Origin: a bacterium ADurb.Bin157
GTDB taxonomy: Bacteria > Muiribacteriota > Ozemobacteria > Ozemobacterales > Ozemobacteraceae
Direction of reading: 5' to 3'
Length of the DNA stretch: 64,000 nt
Assembly: GCA_002070375.1 (NCBI GenBank)
Contig: MWDD01000001.1
Coordinates: 17,425 to 81,424, forward strand
The notes under the pieces: generated by a model
What the model was told of the DNA's origin: nothing
What the model saw: the letters and a program-made list of their open reading frames with translations, nothing else
Database searches by the model: none
In this document: positions 421-20,760 of the stretch, in pieces
Layout: each line of letters opens with the position of its first letter
Numbering within the stretch: position 1 is the stretch's first letter
Program-made: the position numbers and the translations under genes

Positions 421-2340
421 TTATTTATGATCTTTGCACGCAAAAACTTTATTCACGACAGCGCAGACATCGACCACTCTGATCTGGTGAAACTTAAGCA
501 TATCCGACAAACTTAATGCTGACTGTGAATAAGCTCTTGCCCCTATTCTAACGGGATTTTTAAACCCAAGCGCCCCAATAAAAGCCCCCAACCCTGTTTC
601 GCGCCGGTGGTCCTCTAAAGTAAACACATTGTTGTATTTTGCTATCAAGTTTTTCAAGACTTGATTTTCATCCGTGAATCGCTGAACTATAACCACATCT
701 AAAGCGATTCCAATGTCTTCCAGGGCTCTTTGCGACTTTAGCGCTGTTTTTGTCATGTGCGGCCCTGAAGTAAACAAAACTCCGCGTTTTACCGATTCTA
801 ATGCCGAAATGAATTTGCGACAGCCCGAATCTGCCAAAGGCGATGATATGCCTGTGTTGCAGGGCGTTCTGTGTAATCTGATATAAGTCGGTCTGCATTT
901 TCCGGTTTCGGAAAATTCCTTTCGCATCCGCTCAATAGCATAGGCCAGTAATGCTTCGGTGCTTTTTTCATCAACAGGCTCAACCATTTCAATATCACCT
1001 ATACATCGCATTAAACCAATATCATTTACCGCTTGATGGCTTTTACCGTCTGTAAAGTAATCTGCGCCCGAATAATGCGCCGCAAAAATAACAGGCACTT
1101 TTTCGGTCGCAACAGCAAAAATTTGATCAAGAGAACGCTTAAAGAAAGATGCATAAGTGTTAACAACGGCGATTTTGCCCGTCAAACCGATTCCTGCCGC
1201 AATTGAAGTCATATCTTGCTCGCTTATTCCGACTTCAATATATCTTTCATTAAAAAGACGCGCAACCTCGGTAAGTTTGCATGATTTTTCTAAATCTGCG
1301 TCTAATACAAAAATGTTCTTATCATTTGCATACTTAGCAAGAGCCGCCGTAAAAGCTTCGCCGGTAGACAAGTTTTTGTTATCGCTCTTATCATCGAACT
1401 CTTCTTGATTATCGCAGGTGTATTGTTCTTTGAATTCTTTAAACGATTGCCTCAAAGCTTTATGATCAATTTTGCCGACCAGCTCTTCAAGAATTTGTAA
1501 ATATTCGCCATCAGAAGGAATCTTACCATGCCACACACCCTCTCTTCTGGCGACATCTTTTGACATGGACGTTATTGAGCTGCCTGCGCCTTTAATGGTA
1601 TGAGCGATTATTATCGCCGGTGCGTTGCCGCTTAATACCTTTTCAATTGCACCTACAATTTCCTCAAAATTATGCCCGTCAATTTCATACACAACTAAGC
1701 CAATGCCCTCAAAGACCTTAACCCAATCAGCCGCATCTTTAATGTCTGCGGTGCAACTGTCAGACTGCAAATAATTTCTGTCTAATATGGGAACAACGCC
1801 GCGCGGGTTATGTTTTGCCAAAGTTAAAAGAGCCTCAAAGAGCTGCCCCTCCTGCATTTCGCCATCCCCCATCAGTGCAAAAACCGGCTTTATTTCTGTC
1901 GAATCAATATTGTTACTTAAAGCGTTGCCTATTGCCTTCGATAACCCCTGCCCCAGAGAACCGCTGTCAGAATCAACACCGGGAACAGACCTGTCACAAT
2001 GAGCGGGCAACCCGTCGAGTTGCTTATAAGTATTGAGCCTTTCAAGTTCGAAGCAACCCAACGCAGCCAAAATTGCATACTGCGCCATTGCTGCATGCCC
2101 CTTCGACATATGCAACGCACCTCTTTGGGTGCTTTCAATTGAAGGGTTAGGTATAAATCTGTGATAAATACTGCTCAAAATATCTATCCCGGAAAAACAA
2201 GCGCCTAACCAGCCATGAGAGGCAGACTTTAAGCCGGCAAGACAATTAATGCGATGGATATTCGCCAGTTTTTCTAATTGTCCAAAATCGTTAGAATCAA
2301 ACAAATCAATAATACTTTTATCAACAATAAATGTTTTCAT
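421..2340 (-). CDS. transketolase (single-chain, TPP-dependent)
   Basis: 639 aa. N-terminal TPP-binding motifs SKGHAAMAQYA and ALMGDGEMQEG. C-terminal pyrimidine-binding domain GISEQDMTSIAAG...NTYASF. Confidence 0.75.
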   Translation of the reverse strand: MKTFIVDKSIIDLFDSNDFGQLEKLANIHRINCLAGLKSASHGWLGACFSGIDILSSIYHRFIPNPSIESTQRGALHMSKGHAAMAQYAILAALGCFELERLNTYKQLDGLPAHCDRSVPGVDSDSGSLGQGLSKAIGNALSNNIDSTEIKPVFALMGDGEMQEGQLFEALLTLAKHNPRGVVPILDRNYLQSDSCTADIKDAADWVKVFEGIGLVVYEIDGHNFEEIVGAIEKVLSGNAPAIIIAHTIKGAGSSITSMSKDVARREGVWHGKIPSDGEYLQILEELVGKIDHKALRQSFKEFKEQYTCDNQEEFDDKSDNKNLSTGEAFTAALAKYANDKNIFVLDADLEKSCKLTEVARLFNERYIEVGISEQDMTSIAAGIGLTGKIAVVNTYASFFKRSLDQIFAVATEKVPVIFAAHYSGADYFTDGKSHQAVNDIGLMRCIGDIEMVEPVDEKSTEALLAYAIERMRKEFSETGKCRPTYIRLHRTPCNTGISSPLADSGCRKFISALESVKRGVLFTSGPHMTKTALKSQRALEDIGIALDVVIVQRFTDENQVLKNLIAKYNNVFTLEDHRRETGLGAFIGALGFKNPVRIGARAYSQSALSLSDMLKFHQIRVVDVCAVVNKVFACKDHK

Positions 2341-2341
2341 A

Positions 2342-3946
2342 CTAATCAGCCTGTGAATACCCTTCTACGTCTTTTTTTGCGTATTTGACTATAACATTGG
2401 CGGAAACAAGATTATTTAAAGCCTTTTTTAAATTTTTGTCTGATAGCTTGGTTTCCTTCTTTAATTCATCATAAGTTTTAAATGCTTCTCTGTCTAAAGC
2501 AGAATGTACCTTTTGATTGTTTTTGTTGCTCAAAAGTTTGATCATTTTATTGTGCAATGCCTTGCCCTCAGCAAGAGTAACAGTTTGAGGCTCGCCTTTT
2601 TTAGGGCCGTCCGCCATTTTTTTTGACATTTCTGAGTTCCAAAGATGCTCAAACTCTGCTTTGAAAGCATCGATGATCTTTTGATTGTGTTCGTAAAGAG
2701 CGTTGAAAAACATCACATTTTCAAAATTAAGAAACTCGCCGGAATTTGACCAATTGTAGCTTCCCACCGCCAATTCATTGTTGTTGACACACAAATTTTT
2801 GTGGTGCCAAAATAAACTTAAATAACTTATAAGACCTACTTTTTTCTTTTCCGAATCATAACCATAGGCATTTTTTCTGAATCGGTATCTGACTTGAATA
2901 TTAGAGATATTACGTTCCTTTGCCTGTTTTTCAAGCCAAGGCCCTAATTTGCCTTCTTTGGGGTCTTCGTCATTTAATTGCGCATGATCAAGTAAAAGCC
3001 TAAATTTGGCATTTGGATTTCTGGCGGCCGCAAGAAGAATGGCTTCCGCCAATTCGGTGCGTGTAAGGCTGAACATTCCAAGATCTAATGAACCTTCGGG
3101 CTTAACTCTGCCAATCATGCTAATAAGCTCTGAATCAATACGTGTTAGTTCTAATTCATTTTTGGGCTCTGAATTAAAGACAATTCCGGTATAACCCGGC
3201 ACAGGAGAAGCCTCTATATATTTTTCCGGGATCCATTCTCCGAATACAACCTCAGAGTATTCGTTCCAAAGTCTTGCAAACTCTTCTGCGAGCTGACGTG
3301 CCACTGCGGGTTGATTATCAAAAAACACTCTGTTTTCACCATATATTTGGTCTGAAGTAACGGAAATGTTTGCGCTCCCATTAAAACAACTGTGAGGAAC
3401 AGGATTATCGGGTGCATAAAAAATTCCGAATTTTTCATGCATCGTACCATAAATAACCGTTCCGTCATCTAAGGTCGCCTCTCGCTTGTTTCTTTTCATC
3501 GCTTTATCAGTAACCGCAGCAAGAGTGAAATCAAAGGGTTTGCCGTCTTCTTTTGCTTTTATTGCGCCCTTTTCAATTACATTAGCGATTTTATCGCGGC
3601 TTTCTTTGGCCCAAGAAGTCACACCGTCTAATAGCAACAGTACTTTTACGTTTTTATCTGATGCCGCCTTAATCATTGCATCAAGACATCCGTAATCGCT
3701 CATAGAATACATAGCTATTTTTGCGGTGCTGCCCGGTTCTAACTTGTCAAAAGCATATTTTATTGAATTCGACAAAGTCGCTTTTCTGGATATATTGTCT
3801 GAAAAAACTAGTTTTCTGGAATTATTAACGGGGCTAAAACCGCCCTTAGGGCCGAAATAAATATTAATATCATCGGCGTTGGCGGCATTTAAGCCGAGTA
3901 AAAAGACAAAAGCGACAACGAACCCTTTAAGCATTCTTTTAATCAA
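2342..3946 (-). CDS. secreted phospholipase-D-like (two HxK...GSxN modules) protein
   Basis: 534 aa with an N-terminal signal peptide. Two PLD-type motifs: MHEKFGIF...GSANIS and WHHKNLCV...GSYNWSNSG. The motif Asp is replaced by Tyr in the first motif and Asn in the second. Confidence 0.55.
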   Translation of the reverse strand: MIKRMLKGFVVAFVFLLGLNAANADDINIYFGPKGGFSPVNNSRKLVFSDNISRKATLSNSIKYAFDKLEPGSTAKIAMYSMSDYGCLDAMIKAASDKNVKVLLLLDGVTSWAKESRDKIANVIEKGAIKAKEDGKPFDFTLAAVTDKAMKRNKREATLDDGTVIYGTMHEKFGIFYAPDNPVPHSCFNGSANISVTSDQIYGENRVFFDNQPAVARQLAEEFARLWNEYSEVVFGEWIPEKYIEASPVPGYTGIVFNSEPKNELELTRIDSELISMIGRVKPEGSLDLGMFSLTRTELAEAILLAAARNPNAKFRLLLDHAQLNDEDPKEGKLGPWLEKQAKERNISNIQVRYRFRKNAYGYDSEKKKVGLISYLSLFWHHKNLCVNNNELAVGSYNWSNSGEFLNFENVMFFNALYEHNQKIIDAFKAEFEHLWNSEMSKKMADGPKKGEPQTVTLAEGKALHNKMIKLLSNKNNQKVHSALDREAFKTYDELKKETKLSDKNLKKALNNLVSANVIVKYAKKDVEGYSQAD

Positions 3947-4040
3947 TTATAATCTCCGTATTTCAGATTTTGACCTGTATTATTCTATCTGAAAACACCG
4001 AATTATAACAATCTATTTTTAAAAATATGCTTTTTAAATC

Positions 4041-5510
4041 TTATTTAAGCATCTTTTCAAGGAATTTTTTCGCAATAACAGGACTGCTCGTTACGCCCGG
4101 CCCGTTAAGACAACCGCCCTCACAGGTCATTACCTCTACAAATGCGGGTTCTTTAATAGTTTTATCCAAAACTCTTAACAATGACACAGTTTTATTGTTA
4201 ATGCCGTTAACCGGCTTGCTTACCGCTTTAACTCCACAAGAGGCTGCGCTTGCAATGACAGCATTCGCAACACCGCCCGACACGGCAAAGCCCCTTCCGA
4301 CAGAACTTGCTGACTTATCGGGTTCTTGCTCGTCACACTCAACAACATCAACACCGGCCGCTATAAATATCGAACCTAATTCCTCATAAGTCATAACGTT
4401 GTCGACATAAGTCGACTCGCGAGCTTCAAACCTCTTTGCCACACAAGGCCCTATAAACACACGGGTTGCACCGGGCCATTGATTTGAAACCCACTCGCCT
4501 GTGTATATCATAGGGCTAAGAGTGGTTGACACATAAGATTGTATTGAAGGAATATGCTTTTTAACAACCTGAACATACGCCGGGCAACATGACGATGTCA
4601 TAAAAGATTCTTTGTGCTCAAGGCGTTCTACAAATTCTTCTGTTTCTTTCTGAGCCGTAATATCTGCACCATAAGCGACTTCAACAACTTTATCAAAACC
4701 CATTTTTTTAAGAGCAGAAACTACTTTGCCGAAATCCGTATTAAATTGACCCGCAATAGATGGCGCAACCATAGCTACCGTGGTTTTACCCGGATCTTTT
4801 ATGTCTCTTAAAACATCAAACATCTCAGAACGCTCCATTATAGCCCCAAACGGGCATGCCAGCATGCACTTACCACAATAAACACATTTTTGCGGGTCTA
4901 TTTTTTCTTTGCCAAATTCATCTTTGCTAATCGCGTTAACAGGGCACGCTTCTTCGCAAGGTATCGGCTGATAAACAATTGCGTGATAAGGACAAACCTT
5001 TTCGCATATTCCGCAGCTCACACATAGATTTTCATCAATTATTGCATGTCCGCCTTCAAAGCGAATAGCTTTTTTGGGACAATTCATTATGCATGGCCTT
5101 GCCACACAACCCCTGCAAGCATTCGTCACTTGATATTTTGACCTTATACAAGCAGAACAAGCATCGTCTATAACAGTCAAAATACTTTCGTCAAATTTGT
5201 CTTCGCCCTTTTGCACGGCATCAGCAGCGTAGTCTTTTAATAATTTAACTTCGTCTGACTGACTCTCGCTTGCTGCGGCGAAGCCAAGAAGAACCTTAAC
5301 TCTGCTTCTAACAACGGCTCTGTCATGATGAATACAGCATCTTACCGATTCTGAGTTTTTCGGAGTCATTAAAACGGGAATAAGGTCTATGTTGTCTTGA
5401 ATAGTATCGTCTAGTATTAACTTTGCTAAACGAACCATAACTTGTCTTTTAATTATTGCTGCATTGTTTATGTAATTCATATATTTATCTGTGCTCTCGA
5501 ATGTAATCAA
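4041..5510 (-). CDS. [FeFe]-hydrogenase-like H-cluster domain protein (4Fe-4S dicluster plus H-domain, no PAS)
   Basis: 489 aa. Two CxxCxxCxxxCP ferredoxin motifs. H-cluster motifs TSSCCPAYV, FIGPCVAKRFE (Met to Gly) and EVMTCEGGCLNGPG. Confidence 0.75.
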   Translation of the reverse strand: MITFESTDKYMNYINNAAIIKRQVMVRLAKLILDDTIQDNIDLIPVLMTPKNSESVRCCIHHDRAVVRSRVKVLLGFAAASESQSDEVKLLKDYAADAVQKGEDKFDESILTVIDDACSACIRSKYQVTNACRGCVARPCIMNCPKKAIRFEGGHAIIDENLCVSCGICEKVCPYHAIVYQPIPCEEACPVNAISKDEFGKEKIDPQKCVYCGKCMLACPFGAIMERSEMFDVLRDIKDPGKTTVAMVAPSIAGQFNTDFGKVVSALKKMGFDKVVEVAYGADITAQKETEEFVERLEHKESFMTSSCCPAYVQVVKKHIPSIQSYVSTTLSPMIYTGEWVSNQWPGATRVFIGPCVAKRFEARESTYVDNVMTYEELGSIFIAAGVDVVECDEQEPDKSASSVGRGFAVSGGVANAVIASAASCGVKAVSKPVNGINNKTVSLLRVLDKTIKEPAFVEVMTCEGGCLNGPGVTSSPVIAKKFLEKMLK

Positions 5511-5748: not shown

Positions 5749-6954
5749 TTAAATATACTGAATGGTCGTTTCTTTATAATATTGCTCTTCAAGCTGTTTT
5801 GATATTTTCTTTATGACATTTCTTCTGATCTCTAAATCAACAGGCATATTTGGATCTTGGTGAAATTCATTGATTCTCGTACCTACAACGAAATTTATTA
5901 CATCGCTGTCAAGCATCAATTTTACTATCTTTGCTCCCGGGTCGTCTGTAAAGAAGTCAAGTTCGGTCTTATCTTCAAGATATTTTGCCGCTCTGCCGAT
6001 AGTTAAAATGCCTTCCGTTACCAAATCAGCGCCGTCCATTATTGATTCGGGAGGCAAATCAGCGGTTAGCTTGTCAAGCCTCACGTGAACCTTACGACCT
6101 GTTTCTCTTGAAATAATATTTGCGGTAGTGCCCCCGCATATTATTTTTTTACCGGGAAACTCCTCTACAAGCGATGCAAGCATTTTATCTTTTTGCCGAT
6201 CATATGGCGGGCCGGTCATTATTAACAAGCGTCTTGGATTTCTAAAATAAATTACACCGCAAGTAATATCATCTAAGGCTTTATGCGAATTATTTAACCA
6301 AGATTTCTCTACAATAGCCCTTGACAGATCATGAGCAGATATTTCAGGCTTTGAGGCAATTTTATCTAAAATAAATTTTCCGACCCTCTCAATGCCCCAT
6401 CCGAATGGAAGCTCTTTGCTGCCGATTCCGCTCTGACTGACACCGTCAGAAAACATTATAATGCGATCCCCAATTTTTGCGTCAAACCCCGACACATTTA
6501 TTTGCACAGGCTCTTTATCTGCTCTTAATACGTCTGCTTCTTGCTTTTGGGTATCCATAACAGAGCCATTTCTAGTAATCAAAACAGGTGGGTTATCATA
6601 CTCAACAATTCTGACTTCATTGTCAAAATCTATGTCAACCATCGAAAATGTACTGTAACTTATGTTTCTTTTAGAACATACAGGTAATGTTTCCATAATG
6701 CTCTTTGCAGCTTTGGCGGGATCTCTGAAGCTACCCATGTAGTTTAACCCCATAACAGAGGTTAAAGTGGCTAACACCCCTGCTTTAACTCCGCTTCCCA
6801 ATCCATCGGAAAGCACAGCCAACACCCGACTCTGTTCTTTAATTTTTTTAGACAAAAAAACATCGCCGCCAATTCGATTTTTTTCGCAGTATCTTTGGCA
6901 ATAATCAACTTCTATCGCACAATCAGATGTTTTCGGTGTGAACTCCATTATCAA
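5749..6954 (-). CDS. PP2C/SpoIIE-family serine phosphatase with C-terminal uncharacterised domain
   Basis: 401 aa. Has GGDVF, LSDGLGSG, MFSDGV and DDIT motifs of RsbU/SpoIIE PP2C phosphatases. Overlaps the upstream gene by 32 nt. Confidence 0.7.
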   Translation of the reverse strand: MIMEFTPKTSDCAIEVDYCQRYCEKNRIGGDVFLSKKIKEQSRVLAVLSDGLGSGVKAGVLATLTSVMGLNYMGSFRDPAKAAKSIMETLPVCSKRNISYSTFSMVDIDFDNEVRIVEYDNPPVLITRNGSVMDTQKQEADVLRADKEPVQINVSGFDAKIGDRIIMFSDGVSQSGIGSKELPFGWGIERVGKFILDKIASKPEISAHDLSRAIVEKSWLNNSHKALDDITCGVIYFRNPRRLLIMTGPPYDRQKDKMLASLVEEFPGKKIICGGTTANIISRETGRKVHVRLDKLTADLPPESIMDGADLVTEGILTIGRAAKYLEDKTELDFFTDDPGAKIVKLMLDSDVINFVVGTRINEFHQDPNMPVDLEIRRNVIKKISKQLEEQYYKETTIQYI

Positions 6955-8665
6955 CCTCCGCTGTTTCTTTAAAGGCCTCTAATACATTGTTCAAACGAAT
7001 TTCAGTTTCAGAAGCATTCTCTCCCAGCAAATAAGCTATCTTTTGAACAGTCTCCAAATTTAGTTTAATTACTTCTTCAACTCTTTTGACTACTTGCTCC
7101 CTTCTGACATGAGGCACTCTTATATCTTGAATTACAGCGCCGACTACCTGATTTCTTTCAATTGAAAAAACAGAAATATTTAATCTGTGATTGTTGTAAT
7201 CCATCTCGGAATCAACCAAATCTTCACCCGTCACCAAAACTTTTTGAAAAAGCTTATAGAACGGAACAATTTTATTCAGCATAGCACCTTCCAACCCCGG
7301 GGTTGCTTCAAAAATCATTTCTATTTCTGAGCCGAAAATAGAAGCAAAATGCTTGTTGCACTCAATAATTCGCATCGCAGAATCGGCAATTACAACTCCC
7401 GCAGGCATTGCCTTTATTAAAGCGTTTGCTTTTTTACTGGCTAATTTTCGCATATAAGAAGCGCACATGTTTTCCATCGCTTTTCCGTTTAAGAGAGCTA
7501 CTGCAAAATCTCGACACGAATCATAACCGCAACTGCCACAGTTCAACTCGTCTTTCAACGAGCTTTTACCAACCCTTTGCAAAGCGCTCCTGATCATCGG
7601 TTCAGAATAAACTCCCGAAATTATCGGCTTTATTTGAATTTCTGCACCAATGTTTATGCCATATAGGGGCTTGTCAAAATCAATCGTGTTTACAACATTG
7701 CTGTAAACATTATCCCGTTTAAGAACCGTAGACTCTTTATGTCTCATGCCGGGACCATTAACGCATCCTCCGCCACAAGCCAAAAGTTCGATAAAAATCT
7801 GTCTGTTTGGCGAAAATTTATCCAGATCTCCCATTGCCGCAATTATGGCTTTTATACCGGAAAAACACATAAACTCCACATTTTGCTTTTGCAAACGCCC
7901 CTTTATACCCGAAATCATTCCGCCGTCAATGGGATATAAACCCCCGTCTGAGGAATCAAAAGGATAAAATGTTTCTGAGCTGTCAGGATCTAATGCATAT
8001 GGATCAATATTTGACTCTTCAAACCACTTATGAAGATTTTCAAATGTCAAAGCAGCTAAAATATTTTCGTTAAATAAGTCAAATTCAATTTTCTTTGCAG
8101 CGCAAGGCCCAACAAAAGCAAATTGTGTATTAGGTGCCGATATGCTCGCTAAGTATTTAACATGAGCTGCCAGCGGTGAAACCAACGGCGTAAAGTACGC
8201 AACAAACTTTGGATAATACTTGTACATCATTTCAACTACTGTAGGACAAGCCGTCGAAAGAAATATTTTGTTATCTGAACTGTCAATCAAATCAGCTACC
8301 CCTTTTGAAACCATCTGAGCGCCGATAGCTGTTTCTGAAACTTGAGAAAAACCCAACTTTTTAATAGCTGATATAAGCTGCGATGAATGTAATTGAACAA
8401 ATTCAGCCCGCCACGAAGGAGCAACAGAAAGAATGACATTTCTTCCCATGTCTATAGCCTGTCGCACTTTTGCAACATCATTACGTATTTTTTTTGCGCC
8501 TGATGGACAAACCAAAACACATTTTCCGCAATGAATACACAGCTCATCAACAATACAAGCGCTGTTGTCTTCAATTTTTATTGCCTTAACAGGACACTCT
8601 CTGACGCATTTATAGCAATCTTGGCAATCTGCTTTTTTTGTGTATATAGGCTTTAACTCATTCAT
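6923..8665 (-). CDS. hydS: sensory [FeFe]-hydrogenase-like protein HydS (H-domain, extra Cys cluster, C-terminal PAS)
   Basis: 580 aa. N-terminal 2x[4Fe-4S] ferredoxin motifs. H-cluster motifs STACPTVV (proton-relay Cys to Ala), FVGPCAAKKIE (Met to Gly) and ELLACGGGCVNGPG. Then CGSCGYDSC and a PAS-like C-terminus. Confidence 0.75.
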   Translation of the reverse strand: MNELKPIYTKKADCQDCYKCVRECPVKAIKIEDNSACIVDELCIHCGKCVLVCPSGAKKIRNDVAKVRQAIDMGRNVILSVAPSWRAEFVQLHSSQLISAIKKLGFSQVSETAIGAQMVSKGVADLIDSSDNKIFLSTACPTVVEMMYKYYPKFVAYFTPLVSPLAAHVKYLASISAPNTQFAFVGPCAAKKIEFDLFNENILAALTFENLHKWFEESNIDPYALDPDSSETFYPFDSSDGGLYPIDGGMISGIKGRLQKQNVEFMCFSGIKAIIAAMGDLDKFSPNRQIFIELLACGGGCVNGPGMRHKESTVLKRDNVYSNVVNTIDFDKPLYGINIGAEIQIKPIISGVYSEPMIRSALQRVGKSSLKDELNCGSCGYDSCRDFAVALLNGKAMENMCASYMRKLASKKANALIKAMPAGVVIADSAMRIIECNKHFASIFGSEIEMIFEATPGLEGAMLNKIVPFYKLFQKVLVTGEDLVDSEMDYNNHRLNISVFSIERNQVVGAVIQDIRVPHVRREQVVKRVEEVIKLNLETVQKIAYLLGENASETEIRLNNVLEAFKETAEVDNGVHTENI

Positions 8666-8951
8666 GACCGCTCTCCGATTCTCCGATTGCCTGATTCAAC
8701 AACTCTGTAACCGACTGTGGCGGAACCTGCTCGTATATTTTTTCGTCAATTTTTATCACAGGAGCAGATTTGCATTTTTCTGAACACAAACAACCGCGAA
8801 ATTCAATATTTTCAGCTATTTTTCTGTTGTTCTTTAAGTATTCTGTAATTATTTCTACACTAAGTCTATTGCCCCTTGTAAAACAAGCACTGCCCATACA
8901 CAAAACTACTTCATGTTTTTTCTGAATTGTCGAATCGGAAATATTGCTCAT
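8658..8951 (-). CDS. thioredoxin-like [2Fe-2S] ferredoxin (NuoE-like)
   Basis: 97 aa. Cys pattern CMGSAC ... GCLCSEKC. GGAGG ribosome-binding site upstream. First gene of the cluster; overlaps hydS by 8 nt. Confidence 0.6.
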   Translation of the reverse strand: MSNISDSTIQKKHEVVLCMGSACFTRGNRLSVEIITEYLKNNRKIAENIEFRGCLCSEKCKSAPVIKIDEKIYEQVPPQSVTELLNQAIGESESGHE

Positions 8952-9001
8952 AAAAGCCTCCGGTTTATTATTTTAAAACCATCAAGATATATTATAAATG
9001 A

Positions 9002-9019
9002 TTGTGAAAAAATTCACAA
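9002..9019 (-). promoter_or_regulatory. Rex (redox-sensing repressor) operator TTGTGAA-AAAA-TTCACAA
   Basis: Perfect 18-bp match to the published Rex consensus TTGTGAAnnnnTTCACAA. Its left half serves as the -35 (TTGTGA), 17 nt from a TATAAT -10 at 8996..8991, about 45 nt upstream of the first ferredoxin ATG. Confidence 0.6.
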
Positions 9020-18174: not shown

Positions 18175-20760
18175 ATGACGGTTAACAATCTTGAAACATT
18201 AAAAAGCACAATCGAAAAAGTTCGCGCGGCACAGAAAATTTTTTCAAATTATTCACAAGAACAGGTTGATGAAATATTTCGACAAGCCGCTATGGCTGCC
18301 AACAATAACAGAATTAAACTTGCTAAAGCCGCTTATGAAGAAACAGGTATGGGAATTGTTGAAGATAAAGTTATAAAAAATCACTTTGCTTCAGAATATA
18401 TTTATAATCAATACAAAGACGATAAAACCTGTGGGGTAATCGAATACGACAAATCATTCGGCATTACTAAAATAGCCGAGCCGATAGGTGTAATTGCCGC
18501 TGTCGTCCCAACAACAAACCCGACATCCACTGCAATCTTTAAAGCGTTATTAACTTTAAAAACCCGAAACGGGATCATTTTTTCTCCTCATCCAAGAGCG
18601 AAAAACTGCACAATCGAAGCCGCCCGAATAGTATATCAGGCAGCTCTTAAAGCCGGAGCGCCCGAGAACATAATTGCCTGGATAGATGAGCCAAGTGTTG
18701 AACTGTCTCAAAGTGTGATGCGCGAAACGGATTTAACTTTAGCAACGGGCGGTCCGGGAATGGTAAAAGCAGCTTATTCATCAGGCAAACCGGCTATCGG
18801 AGTCGGAGCCGGTAATACACCGGCAATAATTGATGAAACAGCACACATTAAAATGGCTGTAAACTCAATTTTACTTTCAAAAAGTTTTGATAATGGAGTC
18901 ATTTGCGCATCTGAACAATCGGTAATCGTTTTAGATGAAATATATGATTCCGTCAGAGACGAATTCATTGCCAGAGGAGCATATGTTTTAAAAGAAGATG
19001 AAATTGACTCTGTAAGACAAATAATTTTAATCAATGGAAAACTTAACGCAAACATCGTTGGGCAGAGTGCTGCGAAAATAGCAGAAATGGCAGGGATACA
19101 AGTTTCCCAAGATACTAAAATTTTAATTGGAGAAGTGGACTCAGTCGAATTGTCTGAACCTTTTGCACACGAGAAACTTTCCCCTGTGCTTGCTATGTAT
19201 AGAGCTCAATCTTTTGATGAAGCCGTAAATATGGCTGAAACTTTGGTTGAGCATGGCGGGTTTGGGCACACATCTGTTCTTTACACCGACCAAAACACCT
19301 CTAAAGATCGAATAGCACAGTTTAGCGCAAGAATGAAAACAGGGCGCGTAATTTTGAATATGCCTTCTTCACAAGGTGCTATCGGCGACATTTACAATTT
19401 CAAACTGGCTCCTTCGTTAACATTAGGGTGCGGATCGTGGGGAGGAAACAGTATTTCTGAGAATGTGGGGGTTAAACATTTGCTCAATATAAAGACGGTA
19501 GCAGAAAGAAGAGAAAATATGTTGTGGTTCAGAGTGCCTGAAAGAGTATATTTCAAATACGGGTGCTTAAGCATTGCCATTGATGAATTAAAGGATTTGG
19601 GCAAGAAACGTGCTTTCATTGTAACCGACAAATTCTTATTCGATAAAGGATTTGTAGATAAAATTACGCATGTTTTAGAAAGCAACGGAATAGATATTAA
19701 AATTTTCACGGGAGTTGAACCTGACCCGACTTTAGCTGTTGCAAGACGAGGTGTCCAGGAAATGATTTCATTTGAGCCTGACACAATAATTGCATTAGGT
19801 GGCGGCTCACCCATGGATGCTGCGAAAATTATGTGGGTAATGTATGAACATCCTGAAGTAAGATTTGAAGATTTGGCAATGCGATTTATGGATATCAGAA
19901 AACGTGTTTATAAGTTTCCGACGTTAGGTAAAAAAGCCATGATGGTTGCTATACCGACTTCAGCCGGTACCGGTTCTGAAGTAACCCCATTTGCGGTTAT
20001 AACCGATGAAACAACCGGTGTCAAATACCCATTAGCAGATTATGAGCTGACTCCTGATATGGCTATTATAGATGCAGAGCTTATGTCAGATATGCCAAAA
20101 GGTCTTACAGCAGCGTCAGGCATAGATGCTTTGGTTCATGCCATTGAAGCTTACGTATCTGTTTTGGCATCTGAGTTTTCAAACGGAATGGCTCTTGAAG
20201 CCATTAGGCTTGTTTTTAAATATTTACCTCAGGCTTATTCAGAAGGCAGTGCAAACTTCAAAGCGCGAGAAAAAATGGCACATGCTGCGTCAATGGCCGG
20301 AATGGCGTTTGCGAATGCATTCTTAGGAGTCTGCCACTCCATGGCTCATAAACTGGGTGCTCATCATCACCTTCCACACGGGCTGGCAAATGCACTTTTA
20401 ATAAATGAAGTTATTAAGTTTAACGCTGTTGACAACCCGCGCAAACAAACAGCATTCCCTCAATACAAATATCCGAATGCACAATGGAGATATGCAAGAA
20501 TAGCTGATTATTTAAGACTTGGTGGAAACACCGATGAAGAAAAAGTAGACCTCTTAATCGAAGCTATTAATAAATTAAAAAATGTGGTTAATATACCATC
20601 AAGCATCAAAGATGCAGGAATTTCTGAAGTTAAATTCTTTGCCGGGTTAGATGAAATGAGTGAAGAAGCATTTGACGATCAATGCACCGGGGCAAACCCC
20701 AGATATCCGCTGATAAGCGAAATCAAACAAATGTATATAAATGCATTTGAAGGTAAATAG
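18175..20760 (+). CDS. adhE: bifunctional acetaldehyde-CoA / alcohol dehydrogenase AdhE
   Basis: 861 aa. N-terminal aldehyde dehydrogenase domain and C-terminal Fe-ADH domain (GGGSPMDAAK, HxxxH metal site). GAAAGGA ribosome-binding site. Confidence 0.95.
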   Translation: MTVNNLETLKSTIEKVRAAQKIFSNYSQEQVDEIFRQAAMAANNNRIKLAKAAYEETGMGIVEDKVIKNHFASEYIYNQYKDDKTCGVIEYDKSFGITKIAEPIGVIAAVVPTTNPTSTAIFKALLTLKTRNGIIFSPHPRAKNCTIEAARIVYQAALKAGAPENIIAWIDEPSVELSQSVMRETDLTLATGGPGMVKAAYSSGKPAIGVGAGNTPAIIDETAHIKMAVNSILLSKSFDNGVICASEQSVIVLDEIYDSVRDEFIARGAYVLKEDEIDSVRQIILINGKLNANIVGQSAAKIAEMAGIQVSQDTKILIGEVDSVELSEPFAHEKLSPVLAMYRAQSFDEAVNMAETLVEHGGFGHTSVLYTDQNTSKDRIAQFSARMKTGRVILNMPSSQGAIGDIYNFKLAPSLTLGCGSWGGNSISENVGVKHLLNIKTVAERRENMLWFRVPERVYFKYGCLSIAIDELKDLGKKRAFIVTDKFLFDKGFVDKITHVLESNGIDIKIFTGVEPDPTLAVARRGVQEMISFEPDTIIALGGGSPMDAAKIMWVMYEHPEVRFEDLAMRFMDIRKRVYKFPTLGKKAMMVAIPTSAGTGSEVTPFAVITDETTGVKYPLADYELTPDMAIIDAELMSDMPKGLTAASGIDALVHAIEAYVSVLASEFSNGMALEAIRLVFKYLPQAYSEGSANFKAREKMAHAASMAGMAFANAFLGVCHSMAHKLGAHHHLPHGLANALLINEVIKFNAVDNPRKQTAFPQYKYPNAQWRYARIADYLRLGGNTDEEKVDLLIEAINKLKNVVNIPSSIKDAGISEVKFFAGLDEMSEEAFDDQCTGANPRYPLISEIKQMYINAFEGK

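Follow-up and report, generated by a model that had tools for sequence, protein, structure and literature searches.

In a 64,000-nucleotide stretch of DNA from the bacterium ADurb.Bin157 (Ozemobacteraceae; contig MWDD01000001.1, positions 17,425 to 81,424), hereafter called the window, five adjacent genes on the minus strand form an operon, the last gene of which encodes an [FeFe]-hydrogenase (Table 1). It is preceded by genes for a small [2Fe-2S] protein, a sensory hydrogenase of the HydS type, a Ser/Thr phosphatase of the PP2C/SpoIIE type and a second small [2Fe-2S] protein. An original prediction had described the hydrogenase as an H-cluster protein with a mixed motif set, which might be a partner or reference sensor of HydS or a low-activity enzyme feeding the HydS signalling pathway. 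The protein is best read as a ferredoxin-linked catalytic hydrogenase, which would be controlled by the HydS/PP2C module, and not as a second sensor.

Table 1. Features of the hydrogenase operon and of the encoded hydrogenase (positions refer to the window).
Feature	Position	Strand	Evidence or remark
Sigma-70-like promoter match TTGTGA-17-TATAAT	8991..9019	-	consensus match only; upstream of first gene
NuoE-like, thioredoxin-like [2Fe-2S] protein, 97 aa (amino acids), operon gene 1	8658..8951	-	PF01257, 38.2 bits; conserved in related loci
HydS-type sensory (group C) [FeFe]-hydrogenase	6923..8665	-	Fer4, degenerate H-domain, PF04060 Fe-S domain, PAS
PP2C/SpoIIE Ser/Thr phosphatase, ~399-401 aa	5749..6954	-	PF07228, E = 8e-13
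Thioredoxin-like [2Fe-2S] protein (Cx4C...Cx3C), 82 aa	5485..5733	-	sub-threshold PF01257, 20.7 vs 24.8 bits
Group B (B1/B3, HydA2/HfsD-type) [FeFe]-hydrogenase gene	4041..5480	-	list of open reading frames, database match, TIGR04105, PF02906
N-terminal helical region, residues 1-100	5181..5480	-	family-specific; contains RCC motif
R47-C48-C49-x-[H/Y]-x-x-R54 motif	5319..5342	-	conserved in homologues
C108-S-A-C111 pair	5148..5159	-	invariant in 112/112 sequences
Extra 2x[4Fe-4S] ferredoxin-like domain, residues 118-170	4971..5129	-	Pfam Fer4_21, Fer4_6, Fer4_2
F-domain beside H-domain, residues 171-228	4797..4970	-	Pfam Fer4_7, HydS alignment
H-cluster domain, residues 232-461	4098..4787	-	Pfam, CpI alignment; carries L1, L2, L3
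Proton-path residues E279, E282, R286 (ETEEFVER)	4623..4646	-	CpI alignment, translation
L1 TSSCCP	4581..4598	-	checked by translation
Proton-path residue S318	4527..4529	-	CpI alignment, translation
L2 GPCVAKRFE	4425..4451	-	checked by translation; invariant F342 precedes
L3 EVMTCEGGCLNG	4101..4136	-	checked by translation

The list of open reading frames (ORFs) gives the hydrogenase as 4041..5510 on the minus strand with 489 amino acids from a TTG codon. Translation almost certainly starts at the ATG at position 5480, which leads to a protein of 479 amino acids (MNYINN...). This start was preferred because a 100% identical database protein (P0001) has 479 amino acids, because the residues M1, N5 and A7 are kept in the homologues, and because the TTG start would overlap the upstream gene, the stop codon of which lies 4 nucleotides before the ATG. 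Residue numbers refer to the 479-amino-acid form, unless the 489-amino-acid form is named. A 120-amino-acid plus-strand ORF (4027..4389), wholly antisense inside the hydrogenase gene, is most likely spurious.

The hydrogenase passed the NCBIfam model TIGR04105 ('monomeric [FeFe] hydrogenase', group B1/B3) with a score of 521.1 bits at a cut-off of 450. The match comprised residues 15-475 of the 489-amino-acid form and profile positions 3-460 of 462. The same model was passed by HydA2 of Ruminococcus albus (577 bits) and by the group B enzyme of Bacteroides finegoldii (542 bits). The group A model TIGR02512 was failed with 173 bits at a cut-off of 406. In the Pfam analysis, Fe_hyd_lg_C (PF02906, E = 8e-57) and two 4Fe-4S dicluster regions (Fer4-type) were detected and nothing more; a PAS or other signalling domain was not found, in agreement with the original prediction of a second H-cluster protein lacking such a domain, and the chain ends about 20 residues past L3.

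The motifs were placed by phmmer searches against PDB sequences, in which the protein aligned with CpI of Clostridium pasteurianum and with HydA1, the catalytic subunit of Thermoanaerobacter kivui HydABC. At L1, MTSSCCPAY stands opposite MFTSCCPGW of CpI; Cys299 of CpI, which serves as proton relay, and Cys300 are both retained, and the seemingly extra Ser is a Thr-to-Ser substitution and no insertion. At L2, GPCVAKRFE stands opposite MPCTSKKFE, so that Met353 of CpI is replaced by Gly. At L3, EVMTCEGGC stands opposite EVMACHGGC, and Met497 of CpI is retained as Met451. Glu279, Glu282, Arg286, CpI Ser319 (Ser318 in the window protein) and all four H-cluster cysteines are likewise retained. The motif set described previously, that is TSSCCP with the relay Cys, GPCxxKxxE and ExMxCxxGC, was confirmed by this alignment and by translation. 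A misplacement of GPC, which had been considered, was checked in the same way, and the motif sits exactly at L2 opposite CpI Met353.

The conservation of these positions was determined in an alignment of 112 homologues, and the motifs were tallied in the best 120 database homologues. Among the latter, L2 reads GPC in 113 and SPC in 7 proteins, L1 is TTSCCP or TSSCCP, and the Met of L3 is always present. Gly344, at the position of CpI Met353, occurs in 105 of the 112 aligned homologues and Cys298, the proton-relay Cys, in 111. T295, S297, C299, F342, P345, C346, K349, E352, E449, M451, C453 and C457 are invariant. Position 296 is occupied by Thr in 71 and by Ser in 41 of the 112 sequences, both TTSCCP and TSSCCP being common. 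The family-type motifs xT[T/S]SCCP, FxGPCxAKxxE and ExMxCxGGC and the H-cluster ligands are thus all present in the window protein. Their combination is far beyond chance, yet it is the signature of a whole family and not peculiar to one protein. The view that a sensory-type GPC makes the motif set a mixed one was not upheld: beside its occurrence in most relatives, Gly is found in the active CpIII and in the H2-producing enzyme of Bacteroides fragilis.

Other groups of [FeFe]-hydrogenases were ruled out as well. Membership in group A is incompatible with the TIGR02512 score below the cut-off and with the replacement of Met353 by Gly. The triple Cys TSCCCP, which defines group B2/M2a, is absent, as L1 reads TSSCCP and position 297 is Ser in 112/112 sequences; the hydrogenase was therefore assigned to group B1/B3. 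Group C (HydS) was excluded, as there is no C-terminal PAS/PF04060 module and as CpI Cys299 and Met497 are both kept. The small residue (Gly, Ser or Thr) at the position of Met353, a trait of group C, is present with Gly344, but it does not discriminate, since it is common to group B. By its model scores and motifs the hydrogenase is a further member of the known group B1/B3 family and unusual in none of the features noted for it.

The original prediction had also pointed to an N-terminal region without a standard ferredoxin fold, and this holds for the first approximately 100 residues. An AlphaFold2 model based on the 112-sequence alignment was obtained with high confidence (mean predicted local distance difference test score, pLDDT, 94.5; predicted template-modelling score, pTM, 0.91). 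In this model, five helices span residues 6-95; two short strands come next, ahead of the ferredoxin-type units. Foldseek retrieved only group A hydrogenases with a template-modelling score of ~0.55; the best PDB matches were [FeFe]-hydrogenases, and a solved structure of a group B hydrogenase was not found in the PDB by this search. Pfam yielded nothing significant for residues 1-118. A profile of the N-terminal region matched 629 cluster representatives among 1.84 billion proteins, and in nearly all matches listed the match begins within the first few residues. Eight outliers were inspected and were Fer4/Fe_hyd_lg_C proteins, truncated fragments or an evident chimera. The region, including the RCC motif, is shared by R. 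albus HydA2 and the Bacteroides enzyme. It is a standard extension of TIGR04105-type hydrogenases with a non-ferredoxin fold.

The vicinal Cys48-Cys49 (5334..5339, minus strand) at the start of helix 3 are conserved to ~98% and seem surplus to the 16 cysteines needed by four [4Fe-4S] clusters. Position 51 of the same motif is His in 69 and Tyr in 41 of the 112 homologues. In a database protein of 551 amino acids (P0141), the N-terminal half of a group B hydrogenase, which breaks off inside the H-domain, is joined to an IMP dehydrogenase domain; this has the look of a chimera from assembly or gene calling and not of a true fusion.

In the 112-sequence alignment, 18 accessory cysteines are conserved. 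The extra ferredoxin domain has the pattern C122x2C125x4C130x3C134P and C153x2C156x2C159x3C163P with all eight cysteines invariant and a gap of 19 residues between the two runs. In the F-domain, the first run is degenerate (P-C175-EEA-C179-P) and the second is complete (C199x2C202x2C205x3C209P); the Pfam match to Fer4_7 covers profile positions 8-52 only, and C175/C179 align with Cys 3 and Cys 4 of the first run in the window HydS, where this run is complete. Ligands were assigned to the clusters by motif spacing only. Most simply, C108 and C111 would supply the two ligands missing from the first run of the F-domain, and the extra ferredoxin unit would then be nested inside this run. The phmmer alignment to group A enzymes, which placed C153-C163 as the first run of the F-domain, was set aside in favour of C175/C179 because of the classical 20-residue spacing to the next run, the start of the Fer4_7 match at position 8 and the HydS alignment. 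The extra unit corresponds to the 'smaller ferredoxin-like domain' of Bacteroides group B enzymes (PMC12578642). A nested arrangement also fits the model of the B. fragilis enzyme with four clusters and 'interdomain loops' (PMC12578642 supplement) and the variable first Cys run reported for group B (bioRxiv 10.1101/2023.06.23.541094).

The five genes of the operon overlap or are at most 15 nucleotides apart, which makes a single transcript plausible. The 82-amino-acid protein encoded directly before the hydrogenase is probably an under-annotated [2Fe-2S] protein and a probable electron-transfer partner of the enzyme. Its relatives show no precomputed Pfam hit, yet their position directly upstream of the hydrogenase is kept in Riflebacteria and Bacteroidales. 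The C-terminal ~165 amino acids of the phosphatase (5749..6249, minus strand; residues 236-401) gave no Pfam match apart from FIST_N at E = 0.13. This region aligns through to the SpoIIE-family phosphatase of R. albus and represents a conserved domain among HydS-associated phosphatases.

In the window HydS the motifs are degenerate (LSTACP, GPC and ELLAC), the relay Cys being replaced by Ala and Met at the position of CpI Met497 by Leu. Its H-domain scored 175 bits with the group B model and 89 bits with the group A model. Gly is common in catalytic group B enzymes, and the H-domain of HydS is nearer to group B than to group A. As judged from these sequences, the Gly shared at L2 thus reflects a relationship between the H-domains of groups B and C and is no sign of a sensory function.

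Directly downstream of the operon (421..3946, minus strand), genes for a secreted PLD-like protein (534 amino acids, 2342..3946) and a transketolase-like protein (639 amino acids) are located. The same two neighbours follow the hydrogenase in a relative with 70% identity (L067); conservation within the lineage thus extends beyond the operon. At a distance of ~9 kb from the operon, AdhE (Aldedh and Fe-ADH domains, 861 amino acids) is encoded at 18175..20760 on the plus strand. Co-regulation of adhE with the operon is conceivable, because rex and adhE adjoin the cluster in R. albus and hfs mutations change adhE expression in Thermoanaerobacterium.

The distribution of the cassette was analysed by tblastn with the five operon proteins. 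The nearest genome is a metagenome-assembled genome (MAG) of Candidatus Riflebacteria with 89% identity. The same gene order was found in four loci of Riflebacteria and Ozemobacteraceae (L001, L002, L004 and L005) and in six of Bacteroidales or related Bacteroidota (L006, L007, L011, L012, L035 and L063). It was also present in a locus labelled Erysipelotrichia (L003), whose 7.8-kb contig is cut inside HydS, so that the first gene is out of view. Two further loci from Bacteroidales or related Bacteroidota are L009, in which the order is kept without a match to the first [2Fe-2S] gene, and L010, whose short contig is cut within the phosphatase. In Melioribacter (L016) the order is nearly the same, the 82-amino-acid gene not being detected. 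Altogether, the window and at least 14 related loci have genes for HydS and PP2C ahead of a hydrogenase gene of the HydA2 type, all on one strand. The suspected functional tie to the neighbouring HydS is borne out by this cassette, which is kept across phyla and matches the hydS-hydA2 locus of R. albus. In three relatives, a second, divergent pair of HydS (~32%) and PP2C (~28%) follows directly downstream of the hydrogenase (L002:9481-12239, L003:4413-7171 and L005:9486-12313); the window has the PLD-like gene (2342..3946, minus strand) at this site.

In all likelihood, the gene product is a monomeric group B (B1/B3) enzyme capable of catalysis and probably fully active, a counterpart of HydA2, HfsD and the Bacteroides enzyme. 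The relay Cys, Glu279, Glu282, Arg286, Ser318 and Met451 are all present and the group B model was passed, which speaks against the reference sensor or low-activity enzyme proposed earlier. By analogy with the family, electrons would pass from reduced ferredoxin or from the adjacent 82-amino-acid [2Fe-2S] protein via the accessory [4Fe-4S] clusters to the H-cluster. Protons would be delivered via a Glu282-Ser318-Glu279-Cys298 relay, and H2 would be released. Gly344 and the invariant Phe342 two residues upstream presumably represent the normal lining of a group B active site; CpIII, which has the same lining, is highly active and biased toward H2 production. H2 or the redox state is probably what HydS senses, and its PAS domain and the phosphatase may tune the amount or the activity of the hydrogenase.

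Several points weigh against this interpretation. H2 production was demonstrated for relatives only, all of them from outside the Riflebacteria, and we infer the catalytic direction, which a sequence cannot give. Searches by tblastn gave no match to hydE, hydF or hydG within the 64-kb window; these genes may lie elsewhere in the genome. The Ser/Thr kinase adjacent to the R. albus locus is absent here, the respective tblastn query giving no match in the window, so that the signalling route is incomplete. Furthermore, the location of sensor and enzyme in one operon is a poor fit to a simple transcriptional control of the enzyme alone. Finally, seven related loci (from a Spirochaetota MAG, Coprenecus, Rikenellaceae and related Bacteroidales) possess the hydrogenase but no HydS/PP2C within 8 kb; the link is frequent, not obligatory.

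An unlikely alternative is a physical complex of the hydrogenase with HydS, PP2C and the [2Fe-2S] proteins, in which the enzyme or a partner would be controlled post-translationally by phosphorylation or dephosphorylation and not by transcription. Such a complex would account for the strictly conserved order of five overlapping or nearly abutting genes in distant phyla. One transcript for sensor and enzyme also means that transcription alone cannot regulate them separately, and neither a DNA-binding regulator nor a kinase was found in the operon. However, a search for a phospho-acceptor residue that separates the sensor-linked from the unlinked hydrogenases gave no candidate beyond phylogenetic signal; the columns that differ between them track phylogeny, the unlinked set belonging mostly to one Rikenellaceae/Coprenecus clade. 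Moreover, the effect documented for R. albus is one on the transcript level, and NCBIfam names the family 'monomeric'. Quite unlikely, too, is a sensor-enzyme complex in which HydS and PP2C, the latter via its C-terminal domain, would switch the hydrogenase post-translationally, with the N-terminal Cys48-Cys49 region as docking or redox-switch element. If true, a complex switched in this way would show for the first time in concrete terms how [FeFe] H2 sensors produce their output.

It is improbable that the enzyme serves mainly for H2 uptake or at low flux, in which case electrons from H2 would go to the small [2Fe-2S] proteins and thereby set the redox state read by HydS/PP2C. Two dedicated thioredoxin-like [2Fe-2S] genes in the operon, one of them directly before the hydrogenase, would suit such a route. 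Welsh et al. modelled the extra ferredoxin-like domain too far from the main chain for fast transfer (PMC12578642 supplement), which leaves room for a non-standard route of electrons. In contrast, the characterised relatives produce H2, namely the Bacteroides group B enzymes, CpIII with its bias toward production and HfsD as the main H2-evolving enzyme, and hfsD without the remaining operon suffices for the metabolic phenotype. Within the operon, the hydrogenase most likely stands for the catalytic output and not, as had been supposed, for an input to HydS signalling. That the protein acts as a second, PAS-less H2 sensor or 'reference sensor' together with HydS is highly improbable, because, although it shares FxGPC at L2 and the operon with HydS and PP2C, and although the HydS H-domain itself prefers the group B model, it has no signalling domain, keeps the relay Cys, the Glu/Ser/Arg path and the Met corresponding to Met497 where the window HydS has Ala and Leu, carries with Gly the residue that is the norm in H2-making catalytic group B enzymes, and belongs to a family that occurs sensor-free beside hydEGF in Bacteroides.

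As a discovery, the assignment of a ferredoxin-linked catalytic hydrogenase is of small importance; it corrects an over-reading of the sequence, as Gly at L2 is no marker of sensors but a trait common to group B and group C [FeFe]-hydrogenases. The locus itself is a clean and compact sensor-phosphatase-hydrogenase cassette in Riflebacteria, which recurs in Bacteroidales and R. albus and could serve as a model for how HydS signals. The direction of catalysis and the electron partner in vivo, the action of HydS/PP2C and the role of the N-terminal region with its Cys-Cys pair are matters of the whole family and not of one gene.

In comparison with sensory hydrogenases, Gly at the position of Met353 is found in HydS of Thermotoga maritima (TmHydS) and of the window as in the window hydrogenase, and the H-domain and adjacent F-domain of the window HydS are homologous to those of the hydrogenase with 29% identity. 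In both HydS proteins the relay Cys is replaced by Ala and the position of Met497 is Leu or Ser, whereas the hydrogenase keeps Cys and Met. All HydS proteins compared carry the PF04060 Fe-S and PAS domains, whereas the hydrogenase has no C-terminal extension.

The catalytic enzymes CpIII and Thermosediminibacter ToHydA (group B2/M2a), which are both active, have F-x-G-P-C in place of T-x-M-P-C, as does the window hydrogenase with F342-I-G344. Gly at the position of Met353 is known from CpIII, which is active and biased toward H2 production, and from about half of the sensors (PMC10055695). In CpIII, F-x-G replaces T-x-M of CpI, with the Phe ring taking up the room close to the bridging CO (PMC12138974); an activity of about 305 umol H2 per min per mg was reported for this enzyme (PMC12138974; PMC10055695). 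CpIII and ToHydA differ from the window protein by TSCCCP instead of TSSCCP. CpIII was modelled with two accessory clusters only, whereas the window hydrogenase possesses the extra ferredoxin domain and the N-terminal helical region in addition.

The group B enzyme of Bacteroides is more similar, with 48% identity between the window hydrogenase and the B. finegoldii orthologue. It has the same domain plan, that is an H-domain with two [4Fe-4S] clusters and an extra 2x[4Fe-4S] ferredoxin-like domain, and near-identical motifs (TSCCP, GPCVAKRxE and EVMxCEGGCxxGP), L1 being TTSCCP and in the window TSSCCP. For the B. fragilis enzyme, L1 TSCCPSY, L2 GPCVAKRKE and L3 EVMACEGGCISGP were reported (PMC12578642 supplement). 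Three Bacteroides group B enzymes formed H2 after semisynthetic maturation with [2Fe]adt (PMC12578642, Supplementary Note 2). The B. finegoldii gene stands alone beside hydE, hydG and hydF without HydS/PP2C, whereas the window gene is part of a five-gene cassette.

The hfsABCD operon of Thermoanaerobacterium resembles the window operon in its combination of a PAS sensor, a Ser phosphatase and a ferredoxin-linked hydrogenase; this likeness was drawn via HydA2 from the published descriptions, not from Hfs sequences. In two reports (PMC5707799, PMC11837493), HfsB is described as a sensor that resembles hydrogenases and contains PAS, HfsC as a Ser phosphatase, and HfsD as a hydrogenase linked to ferredoxin with high similarity to HydA2 of R. 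albus; hfsD expressed on its own suffices for the metabolic effect. HfsA was described as like no known protein. In the window operon, by contrast, a clear NuoE-like [2Fe-2S] protein is encoded first, and to the four hfs genes the window cassette adds a fifth.

A close parallel in gene content was found by tblastn of plasmids on pRUMAL01 of R. albus 7. HydA2 (WP_013483413.1), annotated there as a 478-amino-acid '4Fe-4S dicluster' protein, belongs to TIGR04105 as well and is 39% identical to the window hydrogenase of 479 amino acids. Both share TSSCCP, FIGPC, ExMxC, the N-terminal RCC motif and the CxxC pair, although ~26 residues of the N-terminal helical region are missing in HydA2. The plasmid genes are arranged in the order rex, adhE, phosphotransferase, two (2Fe-2S) ferredoxin-domain genes, a HydS-type gene, a SpoIIE-family phosphatase gene and hydA2. 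Two small [2Fe-2S] proteins, a PAS-bearing HydS and a SpoIIE/PP2C phosphatase are thus common to both loci. Both [2Fe-2S] genes precede hydS in R. albus, whereas one lies between phosphatase and hydrogenase genes in the window. In addition, a Ser/Thr kinase gene, adhE and rex are located directly upstream in R. albus, whereas in the window no kinase was found and adhE is remote. The window proteins are 29% (HydS, full length) and 33% (phosphatase, nearly full length) identical to those of R. albus, and the 82-amino-acid protein shows 31% and 28% identity to the two [2Fe-2S] proteins. R. albus HydS (L065:4107-5783) keeps Cys-Cys at L1 (ISSCCH), where the window HydS has LSTACP; both score higher with the group B than with the group A model. 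R. albus HydA2 is described (PMC10838669) as a ferredoxin-dependent, H2-forming hydrogenase in one transcription unit with HydS, and hydA2 transcripts were 90-fold lower in co-culture with an H2-consuming partner.

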